This document shows positions 1-58,649 of a stretch of 64,000 nt of DNA, one piece after another. This stretch comes from Novakomyces olei. Its lineage: Eukaryota. Both the position numbers and the translations under genes were made by a program. Location: positions 1-64,000 of the forward strand of contig JADEYG010000015.1 of the NCBI GenBank assembly GCA_016906335.1, in the 5' to 3' direction. Each line of letters opens with the position of its first letter. Position 1 is the stretch's first letter. The notes beneath the pieces were generated by a model that ran no database searches, was not told the DNA's origin, and worked only from the letters and a program-made list of their open reading frames with translations.

Positions 1-92
1 AACCCTAACTAACCCTAACTAACCCTAACTAACCCTGACTAACCCTAACCCTAACTAACCCCTAACCCTGACTAACCCTAACTAACCCTGAC
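1..92 (-). repeat. Telomeric repeat tract; G-strand units TTAGTTAGGG, TTAGTCAGGG and TTAGGG mixed
   Basis: Window starts with tandem AACCCTAACT (x5), AACCCTGACT (x3, last one partial), AACCCT and AACCCCT units, with the C-rich strand on +, as expected at a left chromosome end. Confidence 0.95.
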
Positions 93-286
93 ACAATCTT
101 TCTTTCAATTACTCTCCTTTTTCAACCTTTTTTTGCCAAAATCTACATAAATCTATTCCCATTTTCTACTTCTATTTCCCATCTCAACTCCAACTCTCTC
201 CATCCTTTTCTTTATCCAACAATCTCAACAAATTTCTCTACTCCACTCCCTGATAAACAACCCTAACCCTAATAAAACAACTTCCT

Positions 287-2718: not shown

Positions 2719-5700
2719 CTACTTTTGTTCCGCCATTTTGGTTGGCCTGTCATTGCTGAAATACCAATGCACGAACTTTACACCCGCTATTTGTGTGGGA
2801 CCGATTGTGATTTGACCGGCCCACAATAAGCATGCTGTGCCTTTGGCCGGTAAAGCTTCACCAGTCCAGGTTTTTAGTTTGTCTTTCATTTCTAATTTTT
2901 CGTGTGCTAATTCAAATATAGTAAATAACGATGGCATGATCTTGTCTGAATATTGACATTGCCGTTCCTCTTTCTCAAATGCCGTCCGACATATTGTTTG
3001 AGGTAGGTAGCACCGATAGCAAACGCTCCCAGATTTTATCCAATTTCGCTGATTTGCTTTCAATACTGTTCTTTTGGCGTCCAAGTACAAAAACTTTATC
3101 CTGTTCCGGCATTGGCCAAAGCCGTGTGAGTACTGACTAGCACCGGAAAGGAGACACAAAACACATTTGTCTGAAAGATAAAGCATTAAATTGTGAATAT
3201 CTTCAGCAATTATGATGTTCGACCGATCTCTCTGTAACACGGCTTGTCGACCATATCGGCAATCGGGCTGCCTCTCGTTTGCTTCAGCCCGGACCTTGCG
3301 GCGCTTCGACATCTGACATAAGTCACAATGATTCTCGTCCGTCTGACATCGCGCTAAGTCTTCATCATAGTCGTTGAAATATCTGTCTAGTACTAATCTC
3401 CTGCACTCTGTTTCATGTACATATCTTCTCAATGGTTTCTCCATTGTGCTTAGATCATCCTCACTAAATATGATTAGGCTCTCGGCTCTTCTGCCATCTC
3501 TTCCAGCACGTCCTGATTCTTGGAAATAGTCTACCAAACTGTAAGGCGCTTTGGCATGCACAACCAGTCTCACATGTTGGAAATCAACACCAGTTCCAAT
3601 AGCAGTCGTTCCAACTAATACTTTGCTTTTCTCACCTAATATCCACCGATTTATTATTCCAGCCTTCTCAGCAAAGCTAAGCTTTGATGTTATGCAATGC
3701 GCACGACTAGCAATAGCAATTGTTTCGGCGTCTGACTTTGTTCTTGCGATACACATTACGCGATCATCTTCATCTTTGAATTCAAATTGTTTCAGAGTAT
3801 TTATTACTTCGGACTGTAGTGCTCCAGTAGCTTGCCTCGCTTTGTAAACAATGTTGTGTCTACGACATCGTACTTTAAACCAAGTCGGATTCTCTAGCAC
3901 AAAATGGTCTATAAATTCGCTCCTTTTGCACGGAGGAAGCGTTGCCGACAAGAGCACTATTGGTACATCCAATAGTCTTAAACTAGGTATTTGTTGAATT
4001 GCCTTTCTGTATGACGTAGTAAATGCCAAATGGCATTCATCGACTACCAATCGATCAAGAATTCCTCTTTGGCGTAAAAGTGTTAAATATTGCCGTCCCG
4101 AGTCCGACACAGCTGTCTCCACCGACATCAAGGTTAAGCGATAAAACTTTTGCGGCGAATCATTCGCGGTCCATATTCCAGTGTCGATCCCCACTAGTTT
4201 GGACCGACGTTCCACATCAATCATCAACGCCACAAATGGTAAAACCATCACTGTGCATGAAGCTTGCGGCAAGCAAGCTGCAACCTGGATTACACATGTC
4301 TTTCCAAACCCAGTAGGAAATACAATAACTATTTCCTGTACCTTTCGGGCAACTGCTACAATAGCATCCGCCTGTATTGCAGCACGGAATTCAAAATCAG
4401 AACCAAACAGCTCTTTTGCTTTTCTAAATGCATTCTTTTTCAGTTGACCAATGGAGACTTCCAAATCTTCTGGTACTGCTTTAGTATTTTCGATCTTGTC
4501 CGTAGCATGAATATATTGTTCAGACATTTTGAAGAAATCCGCCCATGACTGACACGCCTTCCAACTATGGTTGAGCCAAAGATCAGCCGTATTCTTCAAA
4601 CCGCTACTGTTTCCGTACATTGTACTGTGTGTTGCGACACTGTGATTCGATAGGTGTATTAAATTGACAGCATTATGAGTCATAGTAAGACCTTCATCAT
4701 CGTCACTGTTGTCCTCAACGTCTGCGATGTGTTTTGAGAATTTGACATTTATAATGGACGAAGCAATCTGCCGCCAGGCAGATATTGACAACGTTGGAAC
4801 ACTTGCATGTGCGCAAGACTGCTCGAAGTACCGAGAAAGGCACTTACCGTCCCATTCCTTTCCATGTGACACAAATAATGCCGTTTGAGATAGTGCGTTC
4901 CCGAGGACACCCTGTAAGTATTCAGTAAACGGTTGAATATAAATCAAATAATTCAGAACCAAGTTCCCCACTTCGTGAGTTAGAAACCGTGCAAGGACTC
5001 GCGGGCGCCCAGTAATGTTTTGTGTTTTAGTATAGGTTGTATATACTAGCATCTGTCCATCTTTAATAAATATATTTCGCCCTCTCCTTCCATTTCTGAA
5101 CCATATAGTTATGGTTTCCGTACCGCGCAATGGGGGCGCTGATATTGTTAATAGTGTCCATATCCATCGCAAAAATGTGTGTACCGCAGCCAAATACCGC
5201 GCAATGGCTGATTTGTCCCAGTCTCCTGTTCCGTTATGAAAATAAGTTGTTAGACGTGTATTTGATTGCAATAGACGAACGAGCCAGTTTTCATGTTCTT
5301 TTAAATAAATAATGTTTGTTTTCAGCTGCTATCCCAAACCAGTAGCCAGGCTGTGAAATATGAATTAAATCACGAAGAGATTTTGTCGAAAGAAATTTGT
5401 AGTTGATTCCAAACAAAAGACTGTCGCTTAAAATTCCGTAGGCTGCCAAAACTGCGCGTTTGTATAAAATTGTGATTTCGGCCATTCGTAGAGAACTTCC
5501 TCTGTAAGAGACTTCTCTCTCTGCAATATCCCAGGTACATTGGTGCGGATTAACATAATATTTTGTATACTGAAAAAGATAAGCTCTCCAATTAAGAAGA
5601 ACTCCAACCGCAGTACTTCTTGATGGGTTGAGAAACTGCTCAACTAAAATGTCCAAGTTTGAACTAGCCTCTCCCGGCTGCGAGCAAGCCTCTTCAAACA

Positions 5701-6829
5701 AAGTTAATTGAGCGCAGTAAATCAATCCAGATAATATCGTATTAAATCCATTAGGCGGTTTCCAGCCTTTTGAAGCATCTCCTTGATATAAATAAGCACA
5801 TGATGCACAAAAGCTTAAGAGTGCAGAATCAAAATCGTTGTTTTTAATTGGTTGTTTTAAAAGATATAAACCAATATAAAAAAGAAACCGTCGCGCAGTA
5901 TCAAATAGACCAGCTTTGATTGCAAGTACAGTCCCCTCGACATTAGCCCTTTGAGCGTCGTCACAGTTCAACATCAGTCGAGTAATGAAAAATCGAATTG
6001 CCTGAGCCCAGTACGAAAAATATCTTTTCTTAGTCGCAGGTAAAGTTGTTCGTCGAAAGTGGCGCACTCGTCCAGAATTGTCCGGCACAAAACTACTCAG
6101 TCTAGTCGCCATAGCTGAAGTCATTTTCATATTGCTTTCATCAAATATATTGTTATATAAAAGCTCGATTTGTTCATCAATACTGTCAAGCACTGTGGAT
6201 TCGAAATTGCTCAGGTTTTCCGTTTGTAAACAGACTCGATCAAACCCAAACTTCGTGACCCACGGTGGAATGTCTCTTTGATCGACATCACTTTCTGTTG
6301 CAGCACTGGGAAGGGTTATAAGGGTCTTTTCCAAGAACTTTCCTACAACGCCCTCCGCGGCTGAATTTGAGCTTGGTTTTAAACCATCTTTCGCAGCAAC
6401 ACGAAAATATTTCAGAAATTGATTCTCTGTAAAACAAGTTTGTAGGGGTGAACAAACAATATGATCTTTTGATGTTCGAACAGTATGTTCTTTTGAGATA
6501 TGCTGCTCAATGACCTTTCGCGATGTTGAAGCAGCATCATAGCAAAAACTGCAGTAGTAGCCTTGGCAAACCTTTAGAAATAATAACGGTTCAACCACTT
6601 CACGCAGGCTCGGCGTGCTCCAATATATATTCAAAACAGGAGCGATATTCACGTCGTTTGCATTAATTACAGAAAGTGCAATTTGAAGTTCAGTTGACTT
6701 TAGCTTATGCGCCTGACGCAAATGCCTTTCGGCTGCGTTGGTTCCAACCTCGACCTTTACGCATGCCCGACAAGCCTTGCAAGCAACTACCTTTAAACCA
6801 AAGGCCTCCTCGATTCCCAAGTACTCCAT
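2719..6829 (-). CDS. tlh: Telomere-linked RecQ-family helicase (TLH-type), interrupted by a single-base frameshift at about 5299-5302; N-terminal Zn-finger-like region, central tyrosine-recombinase-like region, DECH helicase and C-terminal Cys-rich region
   Basis: Helicase motifs PTGFGKT, VVDECH, LSAT, QESGRAGRDG and an RQC-like CRR..C..CDLC. N-terminal CxxC...HxxxxH motifs. Removing one A from TTT AAA A GAA joins ORF 5291-6829 to ORF 2719-5271 (…HYLFK-EHENWLVRLLQSN…). Gene is telomere-adjacent and transcribed toward the telomere. Confidence 0.9.
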
Positions 6830-6917
6830 GACTGAGTATATCTGTTCAAGTCTTTAATTACTACTAGAAACATGCTGTAATCTATTTTCGATATAATGCG
6901 AATCTTATTATTAATAG

Positions 6918-7373
6918 TGTGAATTTCCTTTCCGTCGTCGCGATTTTTACCATATATTAACCTGGAATTATGCAGTAAAATCTACCCTCGAAAACCCTGT
7001 TTGACTATTTGTTATTCAATTCTTATTAGAATTACGCCGTAATTCGCGACGACGAGCAGCAAATTCACATGACCCCCCTCCCATACATTAATTAATTTTC
7101 AAACTGGAATTACGCCGTAATTCTACGTAGAACACCCTAACAAAAAATATAGCTAATAAAAACTACGATACATATATTTCGAATTACGGCGTAATTCGCG
7201 CAGGAATATGTATAGGAAATTGGCATGACCCCCCCCCCTCATACATTAATTATTTTTCGAAATGGAATTATGGCGTAAAGGAAAAGCGAAAACCCTGACT
7301 AGAATTATACATAATAAGAATCACATTACATAAAAATGGAATTTCGCCATAATTCCGTCTTGAATATATCTAG
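6918..7373 (+). repeat. Hairpin module A, copy 2, plus an abutting partial copy (junctions at about 7215 and 7373)
   Basis: Stem tgtgaattt...gtcgtcgcga / tcgcgacgac...aaattcaca, then a perfect gaattacgccgtaattc / gaattacggcgtaattc pair. 7216-7373 repeats 1750-1905. Confidence 0.85.
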
Positions 7374-7915
7374 AGCCATTGCCAGAGCACAAAGGAAACA
7401 GTACGAATTGGTCGTCGACCATGACACCTGCCGGGACATTTACAAACGTCCACATTGACCCTGTGGCGTACGGCAGTGTTATATTTGGGATATCAGGAAC
7501 GAAGGTAGTGCTGATGTGGCCTCCTACAGAAGTGAATCTAAGAACTTACGAGGAATATCATCGCTCTACTCAGGGTCGGGTCATACCAAGACACCTCCCT
7601 ACGCTTAAGAGCCTCCATTACAGTGTTTTGAGGAAAGGGATGATGTTGAATATGGAACCGGGAACGCTTCACGCGGTTATCGCTGTCTCGGACAGCTCGT
7701 TACTTGGATACAACTATGCCGCGAAGGACTGTGAATGCCTTCAGCGAGTGGTCGACTGGGAAGCCAAGTTAGCCCAGAAGAGACCAGGGATCAAAAGCGC
7801 GGTGATACAGGAACACCGGACTATGGTGGATTTTTACAGAGAGGTCTACGGGACGGACCTACCAGGGACAGCGAAAAGAGTGTTGTCGGGACTTACTCTC
7901 TTGGAGGGGGAGTAA
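7374..7915 (+). CDS. 5'-truncated JmjC/cupin-like 2-oxoglutarate Fe(II) dioxygenase ORF at the 3' end of an LTR element
   Basis: TPAGTFTNVHID (HxD), GTKVVLMWPPT and MEPGTLHAV (distal His). No ATG before the domain start; frame is open from the junction at 7373; last codons overlap the polypurine tract. Confidence 0.7.
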
Positions 7916-8291
7916 TGTCAGGGGTTGCTTAGAAAGGTGCTGGGAGCACTTGAATAAGCAACTTCGTAGTTTAGTTAGTTAGTTTATTTAGTTGTATTGT
8001 AGGAAGTTGCTTAGAGTAGCGCTTGGAGCGCAGACTCTAGCACTTCTGCAATAAGTTAGTTACTTTAATAGTTTCGTAGAGTGGGATCTTCGGCAAGTAA
8101 CGAGCCGAGCCCAAGTATAAGAAGAGGAGTTCTTCTACTGGGTTCGGGGCGTTACAACAACCAAGGTTCCGCTTAATATAAGTGTCTTGAGATTAGTTCT
8201 TCTATCTGCCTATCCTTTGCTACTCCCTGTCAAGGCCAACGTGTGATCTTGGCCGACTTAAGATTACTTTGTATTGAGTCACCCCCTAACA
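7916..8291 (+). mobile_element. 376-bp 3' LTR (TG...CA) preceded by a polypurine tract; inserted into the Copia pol
   Basis: PPT ggagggggag at 7903-7912, then taa, then TGTCAGGGG...CCCCTAACA terminal inverted repeat. TATA-like gtataagaa near 8115. Copia reading frame resumes right after 8291. Confidence 0.8.
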
Positions 8292-10075
8292 TAGAGCTTA
8301 TCAGCCCAGGAAATCAACCTGCGCGAAAAAGAAAAACGTCATCAGAGCAACTAGGAGACGAAAAATTCAGAAAAATAGACCCGCTGCAGGAAATCCTTTC
8401 TGGTGAAAGAAAATTAAATCTTGAAGGGATCTCCAAAGAAAAATTGAAGAAAATCCTTTCCCCCCTTTTCCTTAAAAATGGTCAAAGGAAAATATTAAAC
8501 AGACCCAAAGGAGGCGTTAATCACATTGAAGCTCCTGACATTGAGCCTCAAAATTACAATGAAGCCATCACTGGGCCATTTGGGAATCAGTGGAAAGAAG
8601 CAATAAATAAAGAACTAAAAGCAATGGAAAGAAATGAAGTATGGAAAGTCGTTTCCCAATCACAAAATATACGTACAGTTGGATGCAGATGGGTGTTTAA
8701 ACTGAAACAAGGAGAACAGTCGAATGAAATAATTAGAAAAGCAAGACTAGTAGCACAAGGGTACTCACAGATTTTTGGAAAAGACTATGAAGATACATAC
8801 GCCCCAGTCGCTCGTCCTGACAGCATACGGTGGTTATTAGCTTACAGCGTAATTAAAAATTATGAAATCTATCAAATCGACGTGGATACAGCCTTCCTAT
8901 ATGGTACACTAAAGGAGTCAGTGTACATGAAAAAACCCGATGGAGTGAAAATTAAAAAACCCGGCCTTGTCCTAAAATTAAACAAAAGTCTCTATGGTCT
9001 CAAACAGGCACCAAGATCGTGGAACAGTGAACTGGATTCTACATTGACAAAATACGGTCTAACAAAATCAAACAAAGATTCTGCCATATATTACAATGAC
9101 TCTTTAATTATTGCTGTCTACGTAGATGACCTCATGATCGTCGAAAAACAGAAAGGAAAGAGACTTGAATTTGAATCCTTTTTGAAAACATTTTACTCCA
9201 TCAAGTCACTTGGAAAAATAAAGAGATATCTTGGTATGGACATTACATATGACCGCGACAAAGGAATACTCAAATTGTCACAGTCACAATTTGCTAAGTC
9301 AATTATACGCACTTACGGAGACACTAACCTAAAATACATAAGTCAGCCCATCACAAACATCAATTCACTCTATCATCCCGCGGATGAAAATTATGATTGT
9401 CTGGAAATCTATCCAACTATTATAGGAAAATTAATATATTTGACTGAATGGACAAGACCAGACCTCAGATTTGCAATAAGTATGTTAAGCAAACATACAA
9501 AAAGACAAAATGAAGAACAAATACAGGCCTTAAAACACACCATGAGATATCTAAACGCTACACTGGACACATGTATCACCTACACTAGAGAAAATGATCT
9601 ACAGATACACTCGTGGGGCGACTCTGATTTCGCCGGAGACACTTGCGACAGAAAATCCCGATCAGGATACGTTGTCTCACTAGGAAAAAATAACGGCCCA
9701 ATAGCCTGGAACTCGCAAAAGCAAAAAATTGTAACACCAAGTACAATGATGGCGGAGTTCGAAGCTATGAAACTAACAGTCAATCAAGCCTTGTACTACA
9801 AATATCTAATGGACGAAATTAATAAAGGGCCCGATAACATCCCAATCGTCTACTGCGATAACAACGCCTGCATATTACTTGCAACTAATGGTGGAAACTA
9901 CCAGGGTTCAAAACATCTAAGTAACACCTGCTACTATGTGATGGATATTGTGAGAAATGGACTGGTAAGCATACAGAGATGCCCCTCACGAAACATGAAG
10001 GCAGATGGATTGACCAAGAACCTACTTGGAAACAAATTCACTAAATTTACAAAAATGCTATACAATGAAGAATAA
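8292..10075 (+). mobile_element. Ty1/Copia retrotransposon pol, 3' part (reverse transcriptase and RNase H), 5'-truncated
   Basis: WKEAINKEL, KARLVAQGYSQ, QIDVDTAFL, LYGLKQAPR, YVDD catalytic motif, RNase H DSDFAG...RKSRSGY and ADGLTK. No gag, protease or integrase core in the window. Confidence 0.95.
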
Positions 10076-10130
10076 CAAAAAAAAAAATAAATACAAGAAT
10101 ACAAAAAGGAAATAAAAGATTCAAGGGGAG

Positions 10131-10157
10131 TGTTGAAATATGAATCTATTATCCCCT

Positions 10158-10195
<38 letters not shown>

Positions 10196-10408
10196 ACTCG
10201 CCGACTCACTGACCGGCTAAGACAACTCAACCATGAGTGTCAGTTGTTTGACTTTTAGCTTTACAGAATACTCACTCAAAAATACATAGTTACATATATA
10301 TAGCTCAAGCGAACCCTCACACCCTCGGGGGATTCAGCTGAAGCAATCTAGAGTATCTAATTCATTTAATCTACCATAAGAGCAAATTCCAACCTTCTAT
10401 ATTCAACA
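10131..10408 (+). mobile_element. Copia 3' LTR (278 bp) containing a (TAA)n microsatellite
   Basis: PPT aaggggag at 10123-10130, then TGTTGAA...TTCAACA termini; module B sequence resumes at 10409. Confidence 0.9.
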
Positions 10409-10567
10409 TATTATATTATCAGATAACTATAATATGTGTAGCACATCTTGTATAATAAATATATTATATAAATACAACAACCCTACCCTTGCCGCCATTC
10501 TCTGCCCTGACATTATGCTGTAATCCTGTTTCGATCTGACGCTCTTTTTATAGCCTCCAGCCTCCAC

Positions 10568-10865
10568 TGTGAATTACCTTAACATACCCGCGCTTTTTCC
10601 CATACATTAACGGCGCATTATGCAGTAAAATCCGTCCCTGAAAACCCTCCCTACAAATTTCTACTGCATTTCTTATTTACATTACGCCGTAATTCGCGCG
10701 TATGTTAAGGTAATTAGCATGACCCCCCCCTCATACATTAATTTATTTTTTGGACCGCATTACGCCGCAAAATCAAACCGAAAACCCTGTCCAATTTTCA
10801 ATGCTATAATAATCACATAACAAATTATTGATTTTGCGGCGTAATGCGCGCTGGAATATGTATAA
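10568..10865 (+). repeat. Hairpin module A, copy 3 (ends ggaatatgtataa)
   Basis: Stem aattaccttaacatac / gtatgttaaggtaatt, plus a perfect 21-bp pair cgcattacgccgcaaaatcaa (10756-10776) / ttgattttgcggcgtaatgcg (10828-10848). Same gacccccccctcatacattaa and gaaaaccct spacers as copies 1 and 2. Confidence 0.85.
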
Positions 10866-11003
10866 GTAATATCAACCGTTCGAACTTCAACATAACTTCA
10901 ATTAATTCAACAAAGATTATTATATAGACCGTTCGAACAATATATCCAACATCAATAATTTTAACACAAAAGCTTAGTTTTATAAATATTTTTTTATTTT
11001 AGA

Positions 11004-22801: not shown

Positions 22802-22967
22802 TGTTATTTTATCTTGAAGTAGAGTTCTTGAGGTAGAAATAGTTGCATTAGCGACGAACAGTAGCTTCAGCTGAATCCCTCGGAGGTTCTAGGAATTTGC
22901 TTGGGCTACATATATGACTATGTATTTTTCTAGTGAGATCCAGTAAAACTAAAGTCATAACAGGCAC
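22802..22967 (-). mobile_element. Degenerate LTR fragment related to the Copia LTR at 10131-10408
   Basis: gcttcagctgaatccc...gcttgggcta..tatatg.actatgtattttt..gtgag...gtaaa.ctaaagtca matches the reverse complement of about 10240-10408. Confidence 0.75.
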
Positions 22968-50389: not shown

Positions 50390-52093
50390 TCAAACATTGG
50401 AAGAGTCAATTTTTTCGATATGAACAAAATTCTGCTTCATTTCCGATTTTTCTGCAATGTTAGAATTGGCCTGTTTCTCGGCTTGCGCAGCCGTCAAATG
50501 GTCTCCTTCAAAAATATCCACCTTTGTCTGTGCAAATTTACGAGCGGATACTTTACGCTCGAAAAGCACATCAAGCTCAGCGTATGTGCGGTCTTTCGGT
50601 TCTGGTAGACGGAAAAAGATCCAAATGACACAAACCAAACAGGCACCGGACCAAAAAAATCCAGCTTTGGGGCCCCAATTCCACGAAGTTGGGTTCAGCA
50701 TGCGCGGGGTAATAATACCACAAGCTAATCCCACAATATTGTACCAAACACGGGCGATGGAAATAGTTTTTGTCCGCAAACGCGTCGAGGGCAGTTCAGC
50801 AACAAGAGTATAGCAGACAGGACCCACTGTCATATCGTAAGAAAAAGTGTAGATCAAAACAAGAGATCCAATTGCCCATTGTTGCCGACTGCTTTTCGGA
50901 GCCAAAGCCGCACAGCCAATAATGAATAAGAATATCATTAGAGCAATATTTCCAAAGAGATAAATCTTGCGACGACCAATCTTGGGCATCATTACCCAGG
51001 AAATCACTGTGCCAGCTGCTCCCATAACATATTGTCCTATTGAAAGATTAAAGGCCTGTGAGACGGGGAGCCCGGCTTGCAGGTAAAAGTAAGTCGAATA
51101 CGTCATAATCGTTGCCCCACACAAGTTTTGAATAATCCACGTAGCACAGACACATTCCGTGCGACGCAAGTCAATCCCTTTAAAACAGTGCCAGTATGAA
51201 GTTCCGTCTTGCACTTGCCGCTCCAGCTCGTTTGTATGAATAATCAAGGCAACACTGGCATCAATGTCGCGATCACTAACGTCGCGGGTGCTGTTTTTTA
51301 GGCGGCGTAATTCACGCTTAGCCTCGTTGATCTTGCCGTGCCGTACTAACCACCAGGGCGATTCTGGAGCAAAATAGCCGCCGATAATGATAGGCAGGGG
51401 CCATAGCCACTGAATTGCAAAAGGAATACGATAAGCCCATTGATCGTCACGCGCCAAACAGGCACGTAAAACTCCAGACCCGATAATCTGACCGAAAAGC
51501 CAGCAAACGTTGACATAGGCAGTCAAAATAGGACGTAGTGCAACAGGGCAGACATCGGCAGCATAAGTCGTAGTAACGACCTGGAAAAGGCCCCACGGGA
51601 TCCCACATAACAGTTCTCCCGCAGTCAACATCGCCTTATTGACAGCAAAAAAGACGACAAAAATAGCAGCACAAGCGGCAATGAGCCCACCAATCATTGT
51701 GCGACGATACCCGAACCGATCACAGATGTAACCGTTTATGAGCAGACCAATGACCTCTCCGGCAAGAGCGGCATTGCTCATGCCAGACTGCCAGGCAGAA
51801 GAAATGACGCTGGTACCATCGGGCTGAAGGGTCCCGTACTTGTTTTCGAATTGTGGCTGGGCAAACAAATTGGCAATGAGCAGTGTATCGTAGCCCTCCA
51901 TAACAACAGCAGTAGATAGCAGTATACTCCAGCCAACGGCAGCTGGATAAGCACGCACTGATTGCCAAAATGAATACTTGTGCTCTGCTTCAGTAGCCCG
52001 CCGGGCGTCCTCAACAAGAACGGCAAAGTCGTCAATGGTCTCTGCCATTCCCTGCAATTTCGTGTCATCTACACGAACCTCAGAGCTCGCCAT
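50390..52093 (-). CDS. Maltose/alpha-glucoside permease (MAL cluster)
   Basis: VMEGYDT, LCGIPWG, YAADVCP, APESPWWLVR, GIDLRRTE and LPEPKDRTYAELD. Confidence 0.93.
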   Translation of the reverse strand: MASSEVRVDDTKLQGMAETIDDFAVLVEDARRATEAEHKYSFWQSVRAYPAAVGWSILLSTAVVMEGYDTLLIANLFAQPQFENKYGTLQPDGTSVISSAWQSGMSNAALAGEVIGLLINGYICDRFGYRRTMIGGLIAACAAIFVVFFAVNKAMLTAGELLCGIPWGLFQVVTTTYAADVCPVALRPILTAYVNVCWLFGQIIGSGVLRACLARDDQWAYRIPFAIQWLWPLPIIIGGYFAPESPWWLVRHGKINEAKRELRRLKNSTRDVSDRDIDASVALIIHTNELERQVQDGTSYWHCFKGIDLRRTECVCATWIIQNLCGATIMTYSTYFYLQAGLPVSQAFNLSIGQYVMGAAGTVISWVMMPKIGRRKIYLFGNIALMIFLFIIGCAALAPKSSRQQWAIGSLVLIYTFSYDMTVGPVCYTLVAELPSTRLRTKTISIARVWYNIVGLACGIITPRMLNPTSWNWGPKAGFFWSGACLVCVIWIFFRLPEPKDRTYAELDVLFERKVSARKFAQTKVDIFEGDHLTAAQAEKQANSNIAEKSEMKQNFVHIEKIDSSNV

Positions 52094-52224
52094 TGTCGTG
52101 GGCTGATAGTATGATTTTGTTGACGAGGCACAAAGGGATAACGTTGTGATGCAATTAGAAAATCTCGTATTTCGCTTTGTCAAGAGGATGCTTGCAACGT
52201 GATGCGAAACCAGTTCCTTTTAAA

Positions 52225-52750
52225 TCTTTTCTGGGGACGGCGTCAGAAAAGTATACACGCGTTCTGGCTCTTCCTGTTTGGGCCAAAGCATCGAGAACCC
52301 CTGAATGTCTTCAACCCCATGTTTTTTGCAGGCTGATCTCCCGTCAAGCCAATCTAGTCAACTGCCGATCATAATATTGATTGTTTGGTTTCCCCACATT
52401 TCGCATCGTTTCCCGACCGACTTGTAGGCTAATATTGGAAAAAAAAAGAATCTGGAACATAAAATCGTATGTTGTATACTGTATTATCATTGGTCCAATC
52501 TCGGTCTCTAATAATTGTTGGTGGGCGCCGACAATGGTCCAATAATATTCAAGGAACAAGGAACTGGTAATAATAAAGCAAACGGGCTCTTGGTACAGCG
52601 AACATAATTTTACTGGCAAGGTTATACCCCACAAAAAGCAAGTCAGCTGTCCAATCACTATGCTTACCGATATTGAGCCAATAGGACGTTGCAGCCTGCA
52701 CCACCTTACTGAATTAAGGTTTTGCCAGTCGTGGTAAATTGGTGGAGGGC
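52225..52750. promoter_or_regulatory. MAL divergent promoter with Mig1/CreA-type SYGGRG sites
   Basis: ttttctgggg (about 52231), ccccacattt (about 52392), ccccacaaaaa (about 52627) and gtggag (about 52742), most with AT-rich flanks. Confidence 0.45.
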
Positions 52751-53147
52751 TCTTATTCGGAGCATTCTCTATCTAAATTTACATATATAAACCGACAGTT
52801 ATAAATTAAAATGATTTTTGAAGTACATCTCGAATCAAAGGTTGTAAGCGGAAATTGAAAGTTCCATTTAGCCACCGACGCTCTGATCTACCTGAGCGAC
52901 TATAAATATAGGCCGTCCGTCCCTCCTCCCCGAACTAGTCCATCATCTACCTTGATCAGACTCGGTATCTTAACACCGAGACTTTTGCTTGATTTTACCT
53001 TTGCAAAGGCACTCATTACCCAAGAATTGCCGACTCTGACGTTTGCGGCTCACGTACTCTTCAGAGCACACACTGATTAGCCTTTAAGTGTTTGGAATTG
53101 ACTATATTACTGCGTACGTCTTTGCCTATTAGTTTTTTCCCCTCACA

Positions 53148-54887
53148 ATGACGGTACATTGGTGGAAAGAAGGTGTCATTTACCAAATTTACCCTGCATC
53201 TTTCCAGGACTCAAACGGCGATGGCATCGGAGATATTCCGGGCATTATTTCGCGCCTGGATTACATCGCGTCGTTAGGCGTGGACATTGTGTGGATCAGC
53301 CCACACTACAAGTCGCCCCAGATTGATATGGGTTACGATGTGGCTGATTATACGGATATCCACGAGCCGTACGGTACGCGGGAGGATTGCGAGAAGCTTA
53401 TTGCCGAAACGCATGCGCGTGGGATGCGGATTATTTTTGACCTCGTTGTTAATCACACGTCGGATCAGCACCACTGGTTCCGTGAATCGCGTTCGTCACG
53501 CGACTCGCCGAAGCGTGATTGGTACATTTGGCGCCCGGCACGGTATGACGAGCAAGGTCAACGGCACGAGCCCAATAACTGGGCCAGTTTCTTTGGTGGC
53601 AGTGCCTGGAAGTGGGATGAGGAGACACAGGAATACTATCTCCATCTTTTTGCTGTTGAACAACCCGATTTGAATTGGCGAAATCCTGAAGTACGCGAGG
53701 CAGTCAAGCGGGATGCCATGCGATTCTGGCTGGATCGTGGTGTTGACGGCTTCCGTATCGATACTGTCAACATGTACAGCAAACCTGAGCAGTTCGTTGA
53801 TGTCCCCTGTGCTTCCCCAGACTCAGAGTTCCAAAATGCATCCCACATATTTTGCAACGGGCCGGAAATGCACAATTACTTGCGAGAAATGAACGATGTC
53901 TTGAGCGAGTATGACGCAATGACGGTGGGAGAGCTGCCGAGCACACCTGATCCCGCACACGTTCTAAGGTACGTGGGCGCCTCAGCTCGGCAGCTGAATA
54001 TGGTCTTCCAGTTTGATCTTTGTACAATCGGGTTTGAGAAAAAGTCTAACGAAGGTCGTTTGTTCCAGGCGCCCTATACCTTGACGGATCTCAAGGAAAT
54101 TGTCGAGCGGTGGCAGACTTTCATTGAGGGCAACGATGGCTGGACTACGAATTTTCTGGAGAACCATGATCGACCAAGGGCTGTTTCCTACTTTGCCGAT
54201 GATAGTCCCGAGTTCCGTGTGGCGTCGGCTAAAATGCTGGCAACATTACTGCTCACACTGACGGGCACGTGCTTTGTTTACCAAGGCCAGGAGATCGGAA
54301 TGACTAATGTTCCGCGTGATTGGCCGATCGAAGAATACAAGGACGTTGATTCTATCAATTTCTATGCTGAGCATTACGCAAAAAGCGGGGGAGATGCCAA
54401 AACAATGACCCGAGTAATGACTGACTTACGTATGCTCGCACGTGACAATGCTCGTACTCCTGTTCAGTGGGATGGAAGCGAATATGCTGGATTTTCAAAG
54501 ACTGATACAAAAGACAAGAAGGTCATTTCGAAACCCTGGATGCGTGTAAACGACAACTACCCAGAGATTAATGTTGCTCGGCAGGTGGGCGATAAGACCA
54601 GTATACTCTCGTACTACCGTAGCCTGTTGGAGTTTAGGAAGCAACACAAGGATTCACTTGTTTATGGTGGGTTTACAGTTCTGGATCGTGAAAATCAAAA
54701 TGTTTTTGCTTTCAAGAAGCGAGGACAAAGCGAAACTGCTGTCGTTGTGCTCAATTTTACAAATCGAAAACAGGATTTGCCTGCGGGAGTTTCATCAGGC
54801 TCTTCGAAATTGGCAAAGTCGTCGTTGGTAACGCCTTCAACTTCTGCCTCTCTTGAGCCTTTTGAGGCTCGCATTTACCTCGGTTAA
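53148..54887 (+). CDS. GH13 alpha-glucosidase (maltase/isomaltase)
   Basis: YQIYPASFQDSNGDGIGD, DLVVNHTS, GFRIDTV, TVGE and LENHD. Confidence 0.96.
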   Translation: MTVHWWKEGVIYQIYPASFQDSNGDGIGDIPGIISRLDYIASLGVDIVWISPHYKSPQIDMGYDVADYTDIHEPYGTREDCEKLIAETHARGMRIIFDLVVNHTSDQHHWFRESRSSRDSPKRDWYIWRPARYDEQGQRHEPNNWASFFGGSAWKWDEETQEYYLHLFAVEQPDLNWRNPEVREAVKRDAMRFWLDRGVDGFRIDTVNMYSKPEQFVDVPCASPDSEFQNASHIFCNGPEMHNYLREMNDVLSEYDAMTVGELPSTPDPAHVLRYVGASARQLNMVFQFDLCTIGFEKKSNEGRLFQAPYTLTDLKEIVERWQTFIEGNDGWTTNFLENHDRPRAVSYFADDSPEFRVASAKMLATLLLTLTGTCFVYQGQEIGMTNVPRDWPIEEYKDVDSINFYAEHYAKSGGDAKTMTRVMTDLRMLARDNARTPVQWDGSEYAGFSKTDTKDKKVISKPWMRVNDNYPEINVARQVGDKTSILSYYRSLLEFRKQHKDSLVYGGFTVLDRENQNVFAFKKRGQSETAVVVLNFTNRKQDLPAGVSSGSSKLAKSSLVTPSTSASLEPFEARIYLG

Positions 54888-55459
54888 TTGGGTGAATTTT
54901 ATCGATTCGAGCAAAAAACAGTGAAACAGCAGACCAGCATAGGCGTAATTGTGTAAATGTCACCTGCTCTGAATTAAAACTTTCATGAATTTCAATAATA
55001 AAGCTATTGTATACACTTATATATTGTTTCGTCATATTCAATTTGTTTGCTTCGGATTGGGTTAGTGATTTTGTGGATTTATTCTTTTATTAGTGAGTAT
55101 ATTGTCATCGTATTGGCAGTGCAGCAAAGTGAAATGGTCTTGTATACAAGTTTAAGAGAGTTGTGAATTAACCTGGCACGTGGAAAATAAAAGAATAGAA
55201 TGAGTTGGTTCATCATATAAAAATGTTCAGGGACAGCCTCGATAAAAGCGTAGAAAATAGAATCTAATAAGAATGACTATTACAGGGCAATATCAAAGCG
55301 GTTTATTCTTTTTGATGGGGAATACAAGAGAATCAGGATTTCAAGCTGTATTTTGTTTCATTTCGAACTAATTAATTATTGACTTATTTATTTATTTATT
55401 TATTTGACTCGCAACGTTTTATCTGCATTTCCACATGATAACGTAGCCAAAACTTACAC

Positions 55460-57007
55460 TTAAAAACTCCGGGGTAAGCGCGACAATGTCGCCTGAAACA
55501 TTTCTCTAACGCTCAATTCAAAGGCATCGTTTGCTTGGATATAGGCTCCAACATTGATCAGTTCACGTACGTGAGCCACGTACTCGGGTTGTAAAAGTGG
55601 CAGGCCACAATCAACAACATCGAAAATAGCATCGAGAATATCAAGTAACTTTCTCAGCAAACCGAAGCCCTGGCTGAGTAAGGAAGCCGGTTGAGCACTG
55701 CGCAACAAGAAGCTTAGCCTCGATGAAAGTGTGAGCGGAAAAACAAGCGACATTATGCTCTGCCCTTGAGCTCTCAGTGGAAACCGGGCAATAATAATTC
55801 TCCATAAAATAGTCTGCAGCCATTGATGGGTCACAATAATATCCACCTGGTGTAACTCTAAAAGATCCTGCAAAATTTCTGGGTTAATTTGAAAACTGTC
55901 CTGCATACGATTGAGCCAAGCTTTAGTAACTTTGTGTTTACTACTAGTACAAGCACGCAACAGCTCGCCGTCCACTAAGGAAAATGTGCGTACCATATGT
56001 GTAAACCACCGTTGGGTTTCCATTGAAATATCCTGCAACCCATCAATTTCTTTTACAAAAAACTCCGAACCGCGGTCACTAGTCATTAGCCCTTCATCTC
56101 CGTTCGCCTGGGAAAACCTGGTAACTTGCCCAGTCTCTTGATCGCCTTGTTCCATTGTACCCGAGTCAATATCCGCTTGTTCCATACTTTGCAGTTCAAC
56201 ATCACCCTCTTCCGTTTCCATATCGTTAACTGCCTTTAGTCGTAACTCTCGTCCAGCGTGCCTTAGCGCCTCGTACCTCTCGTGCATAAATAAAATCCAA
56301 AAAGAAGCACAAATAACTCGTTCCTGTTTATTCCTGGACCTCAAGAACTTGACTATAGTCAGTGCTTCTTGCAGGTAAACGTAGCACAAATCGTCCATTC
56401 CCAGCGCAGCGTAAGACTGTTGCACAAATACTGCCACCATCATTGCCCGGAAATCTATCGGCTTTAGAACTCCCGGGGGTCCACGAGCAATAAGCGCAAA
56501 CTTTACCAACTCTTCCGTGTCCCTCCGGTCATTCTCTTCCTTTTGTAGAGTCGGACGCAGAGACGCAATCGTCGCTGCCGCTGCTGCTGCTAATAGAGCA
56601 ACTGACATTGGATCCGAGCCCATACTCGCCTGCTCTTTTCTCAAGGTTTCAACATGAAGGATGGGCATCATTGGATAAACAAACGTTTCGTACTCCTGCC
56701 AACGGCGTTCAAAATAGTCAGTATCAAACCTGCCGAGCACTTTGGCGTTACTCGCCTGCACTGTCAAACTTGGCGACCCGATCTGTTCAGATTCAGACGG
56801 TTTCTCAATCAAAGAATTTGGTAGAATTGGCGCATTGCCAATAGGCGCTCGCTGGAAGGGCCGGATACGAGAATTTCTGCGTCGCCCACCCGTCTGTGAC
56901 GTATAAGTGCAGCGTAAAAACAGATGAGCGCATGTTTGGCATTGCCGTTCTCCATTGCATTTGACTTTACGGTGCCTGCAAGCATCGCAAGCGCCTTTTG
57001 CAGTCAT
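55460..57007 (-). CDS. Zn2Cys6 transcription factor (MAL-activator position)
   Basis: CDACRHRKVKCNGERQCQTCAHLFLRC; DIIVTHQWLQTILWR; adjacent to the maltase and permease genes. Confidence 0.9.
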   Translation of the reverse strand: MTAKGACDACRHRKVKCNGERQCQTCAHLFLRCTYTSQTGGRRRNSRIRPFQRAPIGNAPILPNSLIEKPSESEQIGSPSLTVQASNAKVLGRFDTDYFERRWQEYETFVYPMMPILHVETLRKEQASMGSDPMSVALLAAAAAATIASLRPTLQKEENDRRDTEELVKFALIARGPPGVLKPIDFRAMMVAVFVQQSYAALGMDDLCYVYLQEALTIVKFLRSRNKQERVICASFWILFMHERYEALRHAGRELRLKAVNDMETEEGDVELQSMEQADIDSGTMEQGDQETGQVTRFSQANGDEGLMTSDRGSEFFVKEIDGLQDISMETQRWFTHMVRTFSLVDGELLRACTSSKHKVTKAWLNRMQDSFQINPEILQDLLELHQVDIIVTHQWLQTILWRIIIARFPLRAQGQSIMSLVFPLTLSSRLSFLLRSAQPASLLSQGFGLLRKLLDILDAIFDVVDCGLPLLQPEYVAHVRELINVGAYIQANDAFELSVREMFQATLSRLPRSF

Positions 57008-58649
57008 ATATAAATCTAGTACATTTTTGTGGGGACTGTATGTGGGCTGAGGGCAGTAAACTGGTCCAAAACCAAGCTGTGGATAACTCGAACCCGGATT
57101 AGATTGCAATTACTTATTTTAAAGGTGAAGTAACAAGATGAATGTGGGGATGGATAAATTTGGGTCGAATTTACATATGTTTGGCTTGTCATTACATAAT
57201 GTACTGTACCACATGAAACTTCTAGGCCGGGTTTTGCGATTAGAAGAAATTATAATAAAAATTGACTAAATTTAAAGAACTTTTGGTTAAAGCACTTCTC
57301 AGACGAATGATTGATTGCATCTTGATTTTTGGAATTTAAGAAAACGTAAAAGGAGAACCTTGATAATTGTTTTAGTATCTGCTAAACACCAATATGACCT
57401 AATTCCGCCCTAATCAATCAATTATTTCATATACTGAACATCAACTCATGTCAACAACAAAGAGCAAATAGCGTCGCTTGTGCTCTTAGTCAACTCATCT
57501 ACATGTCTCTTGACTTGCAATGCTTATCGTATGTGTGATTGTTCTTCCTTCTTGTCATCGAGTAGGAAACAGAGAGTGTCATGATATCGGAATGGCTAGA
57601 GATGACGGATCTCGGTCCTCTCACTCGATTACTTAACATCGCTAATAGACGAAAACTATTTGTGATGTAGGTTTTAATTGAAGCATCAGAATTAATTAAA
57701 AATCAGCCAATAAAACGATTCATTTACGTATGATATTTAGAATCGGATTAGAGAGAAATAGCATTTGTAACCTGTAAGCGAGATTAGTTTTATCCCATTA
57801 TCAAATTTACCAATATATTTGTTGCAATTGTTTTACACGAAGACAATTTTTTAGCTGCTAATTGCCTCCCTCGGCCGCTGAATTTTTGATTTATTCTTAA
57901 TTTCTTTACTGTCGGATCTCGCTTACTCTGTGCACACCCGAGTTCCTTTGCGTGGGACGTTCTTCTTCTGAACACTACAAACTCAAATTGTTTTCTGTGG
58001 TGTATCTTAAATAATTTGTGCACGCGAATACATTAACATATAAACTGGATATAAATCACAAACGAACCCCACTAACTACCGGTCAGCATGAGCATATCTG
58101 AATCGCATTTTGCAGCCCGGCCATGTACAATGCGCTTACTGGAATATTCAATTGTATTCATATCATCTATAAATACAGATGTAATTAAGAGGAATAATAT
58201 TTACAAAGTATTCACCAGAAAACCTGCAATGTTTTAATTATTTTTCACATGTTATAGTGCTCGTTCGTGTGTGCTCCCTTACGCTTATTGGCCCTTTGAA
58301 ACAACATATTGGAAACAAGGTCTAGCACTTTTCATTTTGATGAACGATTACTCTTGAATTCGTTTCATTTCCACGCTGTCGTTAATAAACATGGCAAAAT
58401 ATCAATAGAGGGCTTTTATTTAGCACTACTTTTCATACATCGATATGTATATAATATGTTTACCAAAAAGTATTCCTTGTCGTTTATTTGCTCCTTATAT
58501 CGTTAAACCGATACTCATGATTACTTGTCGAATCTGATGATACGTGGGCAAGTGCGGATTCACTGATAACGGCGGCAGAGCGCAAGAAGCCAAAACATCC
58601 AAATTTTCAGCTTCAGGTCGACAGGGATAACTCTGATTTTATTCCTACA

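Follow-up and report, generated by a model that had tools for sequence, protein, structure and literature searches.

A JmjC-like reading frame lying against the long terminal repeat of a putative fungal retroelement: a truncated subtelomeric relic

Introduction

Central to the locus described here is the question of whether a long terminal repeat (LTR) retroelement can carry a chromatin-modifying enzyme among its own genes. To our knowledge, LTR retrotransposons rarely fix extra enzymatic domains, and the known chromatin-related additions to such elements are chromodomains, which read histone marks. The locus lies in a 64-kb stretch of Novakomyces olei DNA (contig JADEYG010000015.1, positions 1-64,000 of the forward strand; hereafter the window, whose positions serve as coordinates throughout). 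Here, a block of about 3 kb between 7373 and 10409 consists of the remnant of a JmjC-like open reading frame (ORF), a 376-bp unit with TG...CA ends and a 5'-truncated Ty1/Copia element. A sequence-only reading had seen in the left part of this block a retrotransposon with its own chromatin modifier. The overall explanation proposed below, which we rate as evenly poised between right and wrong, is that an LTR retroelement of low copy number, element A, has its 3' end at 7374-8291, comprising the C-terminal part of its last internal ORF, the polypurine tract and the 3' LTR.

A JmjC-like reading frame with its catalytic residues in place

What kind of protein did the ORF encode? A phmmer search against 1.84 billion representative sequences returned 151 matches at E<=1e-3, with 18 at E<=1e-10, none at E<=1e-30 and a closest relative sharing 38% identity. 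The nearest relatives are proteins of 300-450 aa, mostly without a Pfam match and in several cases with a C2H2-like N-terminus, and the farther matches are classical JmjC+JHD+PHD proteins. The curated Pfam models (JmjC PF02373, JmjC_2 PF08007 and Cupin_8 PF13621) are not reached by the ORF and are reached in 18 of 150 relatives; membership of the JmjC group is therefore drawn from the phmmer links to these Pfam-reaching proteins together with a profile search of the PDB, in which the family profile matched ceKDM7A (8.2e-13), KDM2A (8.6e-12), PHF8 (1.9e-8) and also PHF2. An AlphaFold2 model built from the family alignment (predicted local distance difference test 88.5; predicted template modelling score 0.83) points in the same direction. 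Its Foldseek matches at ranks 1-29 are all PHF8, KDM7, KDM2A or PHF2 (probability 1.00, template modelling score for the query 0.53-0.62), the best of them, to PHF8, ceKDM7A, KDM2A and PHF2, having E values of about 1e-10 to 1e-8, and a feature search of a protein atlas likewise gave JmjC clusters. The leading structural matches are thus solved JmjC domains, and not some fold outside the JmjC/cupin type.

The residues expected of an active site have been retained. His30, Asp32 and His103, which would ligate Fe(II), fall in conserved columns of both the family alignment and ceKDM7A/KDM2A, as do Thr27 and Lys47; the latter two, three residues before and 17 residues after the first histidine, align with the 2-oxoglutarate-binding threonine and lysine of KDM2A/KDM7. 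The claims of an intact HxD...H triad with a G-x-K motif and of a JmjC-like dioxygenase ORF, made from the letters of the DNA, have thus held up under the profile and structure searches. Overall, the ORF is best described as the remnant of a genuine JmjC/cupin-type domain of the Fe(II)/2-oxoglutarate oxygenase kind, whose demethylase or hydroxylase activity is only predicted, and by profile and modelled fold it appears closest to the histone lysine demethylases KDM2/KDM7/PHF8.

It is evident that the copy in the window is incomplete. Alignment with 24 relatives places the ORF over their C-terminal ~180 residues, with 150-230 N-terminal residues missing; 29 residues precede the HxD motif in the ORF, and the relatives have 140-260 before the matched stretch. 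The homology to the family begins at 7374, immediately after a subtelomeric repeat copy that is 99% identical to another in the window, in keeping with the earlier remark that the 5' part is missing. Cut in this way by the repeat, the copy is unable to make a complete JmjC domain and is a dead relic. At the other end, the relatives terminate 10-70 residues past the conserved core and the ORF does likewise, so that its stop probably lies at about the native position. Further, the relatives possess an N-terminal region of their own, which suggests that the intact version was a separate ORF or a large insert and not a small appended domain.

A discrete repeat with the ends of a long terminal repeat

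How does the ORF meet the unit next to it? The sequence-only reading had described the last codons as forming the polypurine tract, and this proved to be so: the purine run GGAGGGGGAG is followed by the TAA stop, and no base separates the stop from the first base of the 376-bp unit. Purine runs of at least 10 bases number 38 on the plus strand of the window, and for any chosen point the chance of one ending no more than 3 bases away is about 0.2%. The termini of the unit are inverted, 8 of 9 bases matching between TGTCAGGGG and the reverse complement of the other end, TGTTAGGGG. Since the purine run lies three bases upstream and the termini are inverted, the unit is read as a 3' LTR on the plus strand. 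Inspection by eye of both strands next to either border of the unit revealed no TGG-type primer-binding site.

As the unit is present once in the window, its status as a repeat is drawn from read and contig data, namely from three public sequencing runs, X1-X3, in which the words of the stretch are largely present (shares of 0.80, 0.77 and 0.69). Contigs of these runs were aligned to 6800-10900 at 85% likeness, and the loose ends and differences given here and below are among those listed, a further 92 loose ends and 16 rows of other letters lying beyond them. In X2, four contigs reach 7916 from unlike sequence, three exit 8291 into unlike sequence and one reaches 8292 from unlike sequence. 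Two contig pieces of X1 (records 3 and 4) stop at 7915 and one of X3 (record 20) at 8291, and matches begin at 8292 in X1 record 5, X2 record 11 and X3 record 21, with 2888, 435 and 195 unmatched bases before that point. At position 7954, inside the unit, X1 has 7 distinct contigs and X2 has 12. Summed over contigs, the depth is about 2-4 times as high on the unit as on the ORF, depth being no measure of copy number. The 376-bp TG...CA LTR that had been proposed is therefore matched by contigs that break exactly at 7916 and 8291, and the unit is a genuine, discrete, multi-copy repeat with LTR-like ends.

It could still be asked whether the unit is some other dispersed repeat, or the 3' untranslated region (UTR) of a multi-copy JmjC gene family. 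Its single copy in the window and the lack of any reverse transcriptase (RT) or integrase (IN) assignable to it would suit such an account, but the TG...CA ends, the inverted termini and the polypurine tract at the 5' edge speak for an LTR, as do the sharp borders at both ends amid several different flanks and the greater contig depth over the unit than over the ORF. Moreover, several contigs reach 7916 from unlike sequence, so the unit is not simply the UTR of the ORF. We consider it very improbable that the unit is anything other than an LTR.

A probable insertion within a Ty1/Copia element

The right-hand part of the block provides the context in which the ORF and the LTR are to be understood. 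The Ty1/Copia element that begins at 8292, hereafter Copia B, was recognised by its RVT_2 match (E=3.3e-66), an RNase H region, a polypurine tract and LTR ends of the TGTTG...CAACA type; loose ends at 10408 (X3) and 10409 (X1, X2 and X3) support its outer border, to the right of which the flank TATTA continues the subtelomeric repeat unit. The 376-bp LTR and the 278-bp LTR of Copia B share no similarity, and the candidate explanation that 7916-8291 is the 5' LTR of Copia B itself, brought close by an internal deletion, was rejected on account of this dissimilarity.

Copies of Copia that are not interrupted at 8292 have unlike sequence before that point, and it is not JmjC; a 30-base loose end of X2 before 8292 (agreement 1) has, by eye, no stop in the Copia frame. 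Since the Copia interior is interrupted at 8292 and other Copia copies carry no JmjC sequence upstream, the ORF is not the flank of the insertion target and would lie inside the inserted element. Further, a solo LTR or a 5' LTR inserted in Copia would have Copia sequence on its left, and as the DNA to the left is not Copia, the reading as a 3' LTR is the simplest. That the JmjC ORF is internal to an LTR element is, on these grounds, likely.

The history of the block could then be ordered as follows. Copia B would have inserted first, into a subtelomeric repeat unit. Element A would have entered it in the same orientation, landing in the IN-RT linker at a distance of 341 bases upstream from the RVT_2 match. 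Thereafter, a deletion or rearrangement whose left edge coincides with the repeat end at 7373 would have removed the start of the repeat unit, the 5' half of Copia B and all of element A upstream of 7374.

A different history would make the meeting of ORF and LTR accidental: a host or subtelomeric JmjC-like gene could have been brought beside the LTR by ectopic recombination between a gene-flanking LTR and the LTR inserted in Copia, or by a deletion ending at the 5' edge of a solo LTR, the additional copies then being subtelomeric segmental duplications. The subtelomere is indeed rearranged and the ORF itself is cut by a repeat at 7374; the relatives of the ORF are ordinary stand-alone genes, its base composition is host-like, and no listed contig links a variant ORF to a different flank. 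But such a history requires the break to have fallen precisely on the LTR edge and, at that very place, a 10-base purine run (~0.2%) on the strand and side appropriate for a 3' LTR, with the ORF stop no base away from it. Moreover, run X3 contains only a variant ORF, has an LTR end leading into sequence unlike the Copia of the window and has Copia upstream of 8292 without an LTR, which points to a different locus. Accidental juxtaposition by rearrangement is accordingly held to be unlikely, and less likely than the capture of a host gene by the element, because it demands both the exact breakpoint and a polypurine tract arisen by chance.

Two minor observations on Copia B may be added. An (AAT)n run lies within its LTR at about 10157-10193, and 100 bases of this LTR (10245-10344) recur with 79.6% identity at 22864-22962 on the minus strand, probably as a degraded solo LTR. 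At 8954, within the Copia frame, all three DNA runs have three bases fewer than the window, so that Copia copies or strains differ in length at this point with the frame kept.

Diverged copies and signs of constraint

Does the ORF exist elsewhere, and has it been kept? In X1, two contigs run across 7764-7915 with 0 and 8 differences from the window, and both stop at 7915. X3 lacks the version of the ORF seen in the window (depth 0 at 7485-7621) and has a variant covering 7636-7897 with 7 differences; its LTR-end contig continues past 8291 into sequence unlike the Copia of the window, and its Copia contig extends upstream of 8292 without the LTR. Up to five variant ORF contigs are found in X2. 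At least two diverged copies of the 3' end of the ORF therefore exist, both stopping at 7915. The listed differences within the ORF number nine. Seven of them occupy the third position of a codon (binomial p=0.008), and the nine divide into six synonymous and three conservative changes (K>R, A>V and D>E). Indels are listed at two sites in the LTR and at none in the ORF. The third-position bias and the lack of listed ORF indels suggest constraint on the encoded protein.

These observations bear on whether the ORF served the element or merely travelled in it. A host gene, or a fragment of one, might have been captured by a defective or non-autonomous element in whose life cycle it had no role. 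The composition of the ORF, host-like and unlike the A-rich Copia, agrees with such a passenger, as do the 150 of 150 listed relatives that are stand-alone and lack retroelement domains, the low copy number and the lack of any intact copy among the sequences searched. On the other side stand the tight layout, in which the last codons are the polypurine tract and no UTR-like spacer intervenes, the concentration of differences at third positions without listed indels, and the preservation of the catalytic residues. A captured host gene in a defective element remains a serious rival, although we think it rather unlikely. That the ORF was instead an adapted gene of the element, maintained by selection, is, all considered, a proposition only just short of even.

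The public runs provide some further observations. In a contig of X1 with a low depth of 4.1, the start of the LTR (7916) is connected with position 9193 of Copia in the reverse orientation, which hints at a second insertion of the LTR element into another copy of Copia. At 7627 and 7954, every covering contig of X1-X3 has G where the window has T and A, respectively, reflecting a strain difference or an error in the window assembly. The block is polymorphic among strains: 18 of the 21 indexed runs that have the same species label or study hold almost none of its words, which is not proof of absence. In an RNA run, X5, of whose raw reads about 44% were read and whose strain may lack the locus, nothing was found on the ORF, the LTR or the Copia interior, and the only reads were A-rich ones at 10071-10117.

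Weighing the retroelement reading

Several results weigh against placing the ORF in a retroelement, and they are best considered together. The window contains neither a second copy of the 376-bp unit, which would be the second LTR, nor a primer-binding site, gag, RT or IN of element A, and no further fragments of the JmjC family; no target-site duplication for element A was retrieved. The search for full-length copies that the sequence-only reading had recommended, with the LTR and ORF as queries, ended without any: scans with 24-mers of the LTR gave 0 matches in metagenome contigs and 0 in viral contigs, and the ORF protein gave no match in contigs of prokaryote genomes. In metagenome contigs, two loci matching the ORF over 14-15 residues were judged spurious, and tblastn with the ORF plus 40 of the 150 family proteins added nothing. 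A word-index protein search came up without a close relative in either size range, 100-321 aa or 322-2000 aa, which counts as weak evidence. Retroelement Pfam domains occur in 0 of the 150 listed relatives (a cut-off of E<=0.01 was applied to 32 of them and one of E<=1e-5 to 118), and these relatives look like stand-alone fungal proteins of 300-450 aa. The Pfam match of the fragment itself is below threshold (Cupin_8, E=0.021, 15.2 bits against a cut-off of 27.4). The GC content of the ORF is 50.7%, with 0.56 at third codon positions (GC3), as against 37.9% and 0.37 in Copia B, and two host genes have GC3 values of 0.52-0.53; such a host-like composition fits a recently captured host gene. Finally, the copy number is low, and the second copy is known from short Logan contigs, among which none was seen to bridge variant ORF, LTR and flank, so that room is left for a segmental duplication of the rearranged locus.

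What, then, becomes of the claim of a retrotransposon that encodes its own chromatin modifier? The part that places the ORF inside an inserted element probably stands, by the logic of the flanks and by the polypurine tract on the 3' LTR side; the part that would call for the element itself found no backing, as no full-length copy, second LTR or gag-pol was retrieved. The mechanism considered most likely is that, in intact elements, the ORF would be an accessory gene expressed from the element transcript. Its product would work on methylated proteins of the chromatin near new or resident copies and either oppose repressive methylation or influence where the element persists; the anti-silencing role suggested by the sequence-only reading is likewise hypothetical. 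The fullest form of this idea would be a fungal LTR retrotransposon family that encodes, as its last ORF and overlapping the polypurine tract, a KDM2/KDM7-like JmjC oxygenase under purifying selection, acting as an eraser of histone methylation that protects new copies or shapes their survival; in this form we regard the proposal as doubtful. Were it true, an element with a histone-demethylase-type enzyme would constitute a direct counter to chromatin silencing that ordinary fungal genetics could test, and it would give a functional lead for a large unannotated family of fungal JmjC-like proteins. At present, the value of the locus is that of a pointer toward intact copies, the known one being a truncated relic.

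The subtelomeric setting

The left edge of the window is a chromosome end (Table 1). Irregular telomere repeats, among whose units are AACCCTAACT and AACCCTGACT, are followed by a minisatellite, then by subtelomeric repeat units and then by a RecQ-type helicase gene. Within the latter, an ORF at 2719-5328 on the minus strand has DEAD, Helicase_C and RecQ_Zn_bind matches, and an overlapping ORF at 5291-6853, also on the minus strand, has an OrsD/zinc-finger-like match; the two may form a single gene with a frameshift or an intron. The GC content of the window is about 42%, its ORFs are long and uninterrupted, and its remaining ORFs are ordinary fungal genes, including Zn2Cys6 factors, sugar transporters, an alpha-glucosidase and an oxoprolinase. 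A MAL-like subtelomeric gene cluster occupies 50390-57109. The alpha-glucosidase reaches no more than 58% identity in its best database match, scores of similar size being scattered across Mucoromycota, Leotiomycetes, Sordariomycetes and Lipomyces. No tRNA genes were found in the window. The host is a fungus with TTAGGG-type telomeres and Zn2Cys6 factors.

The junction that truncates the ORF lies at the end of a repeat of family D3, and a repeat analysis of the window showed 7231-7373 to be a 99%-identical copy of 1763-1905. The D3 end (...ATATATCTAG) is a recurrent junction, found at 7373 and also at 1905: the next repeat unit follows it at 1905, the JmjC remnant follows it at 7374, and in run X3 a stretch of 14 bases separates it from TTAGGG repeats. 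This suggests that the D3 end is a preferred point of recombination or healing. X1 and X2 also show a joint from 7371 to 8114 with a side of 26 bases, which may be a second junction between a repeat end and a truncated LTR or a short chance alignment. The 8-base sequence ATCTAGAG, present at 7368-7375 and 10346-10353, was considered as a target-site duplication of the whole block and rejected, its second copy lying inside the LTR of Copia B, whose true end is 10408.

Table 1. Positions of the features in the window, those of the putative element A first
Feature	Position	Strand	Remarks
JmjC-like ORF remnant	7364-7915 (stop-to-stop frame)	+	183 codons; TAA stop 7913-7915
H-I-D	7451-7459	+	aa 30-32; first two predicted Fe(II) ligands
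G-T-K	7496-7504	+	aa 45-47
Distal His	7670-7672	+	aa 103, in PGTLHAV; third predicted Fe(II) ligand
Polypurine tract of element A	7903-7912	+	GGAGGGGGAG; made of the E-G-E codons that close the ORF, with 3 bases between it and the LTR
LTR of element A, read as 3' LTR	7916-8291	+	376 bp; TG at 7916, CA at 8291
Copia B interior, 5'-truncated	8292-10075	+	IN-RT linker, RVT_2 and RNase H region in a single open frame; stop 10073-10075
Copia B polypurine tract	10123-10130	+	AAGGGGAG; directly before its own LTR
Copia B 3' LTR	10131-10408	+	278 bp; termini TGTTGAA...TTCAACA
Subtelomeric repeat copies, families D4/D3	6922-7373	none	End at 7373 truncates the JmjC ORF
Subtelomeric repeat unit resumes (D6/D7/D5/D4/D3)	10409-10865	none	Putative former target of Copia B
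CCCTAA-type telomere repeats	1-100		Irregular; units e.g. AACCCTAACT, AACCCTGACT
15-bp minisatellite array	after telomere repeats, to ~1190		CCATACATTATTC-like units, at least 31 copies
RecQ-type helicase gene, telomere-linked	2719-6853	minus	OrsD-like part upstream
Sugar transporter	50390-52219	minus	MAL-like cluster
Alpha-glucosidase	53133-54887	plus	MAL-like cluster
Zn2Cys6 regulator	55460-57109	minus	MAL-like cluster

Comparison with known systems

Among characterised proteins, the demethylases of the KDM2/KDM7/PHF8-PHF2 group (ceKDM7A, 3n9l; KDM2A, 4qwn/2yu1; PHF8, 3k3n) resemble the ORF in the T-x-x-H-x-D motif, in the lysine 17 residues after the histidine and in the distal histidine, at an identity of 13-19% over the fold alignment. 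Unlike them, the ORF has no PHD, CXXC, F-box or JHD modules, and the N-terminal part of its domain is missing. The family of fungal proteins of 300-450 aa whose C-terminal half is JmjC-like stands closer, at 21-38% identity; it shares with the ORF the motifs TPAG.IT..HID, G.K, WPPT..NL, PG.IHAV and WE, and the ends of the proteins coincide. The family differs in that retroelement domains are lacking from all 150 listed relatives.

Among mobile elements, the chromoviruses are Ty3/Gypsy elements with a chromodomain at the C-terminus of the integrase, just before the polypurine tract and the 3' LTR. Element A would resemble them in having a chromatin-related module in the last coding position before the polypurine tract. 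The difference would lie in the action of the module, as the chromodomain reads histone methylation and targets integration, whereas a JmjC domain would erase histone methylation.

A full-text literature search, with most subscription journals outside its reach, brought up no description of an LTR retroelement with a JmjC domain. The nearest counterpart comes from the orchid Phalaenopsis, where Ty3/Gypsy elements of 25 kb are reported to contain an extra ORF for an AlkB-type 2-oxoglutarate dioxygenase that is active in vitro as a demethylase of N6-methyladenosine in RNA and that its authors propose to counter host surveillance (PMC9289625). The likeness to element A lies in an LTR retrotransposon with an additional 2-oxoglutarate/Fe(II) dioxygenase; there, the enzyme is of the AlkB type, acts on RNA, belongs to a plant and has a demonstrated activity, whereas the putative element A would have an enzyme of the JmjC type, in a fungus, and is a relic known from its sequence. 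The word 'JmjC' has 0 occurrences in that article. In the literature searched, the AlkB gene of the orchid Gypsy elements is the one dioxygenase precedent found in LTR elements, and its enzyme acts on RNA.

Finally, fungal DNA transposons are reported to carry TET/JBP dioxygenase genes (PMC12730594). These would share with element A the combination of a fungal mobile element and a 2-oxoglutarate/Fe(II) dioxygenase directed at an epigenetic mark, and they differ in being DNA transposons and in encoding a 5-methylcytosine oxidase of a different fold family. Should the fullest reading of the locus hold, the 300-450 aa fungal JmjC-like family, which comprises 151 representative clusters with many fragments among them, might in part be carried by transposons, as these genes are. 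Accessory ORFs are already known from LTR retroelements, and it is the cargo of the JmjC type that would be unusual among them.

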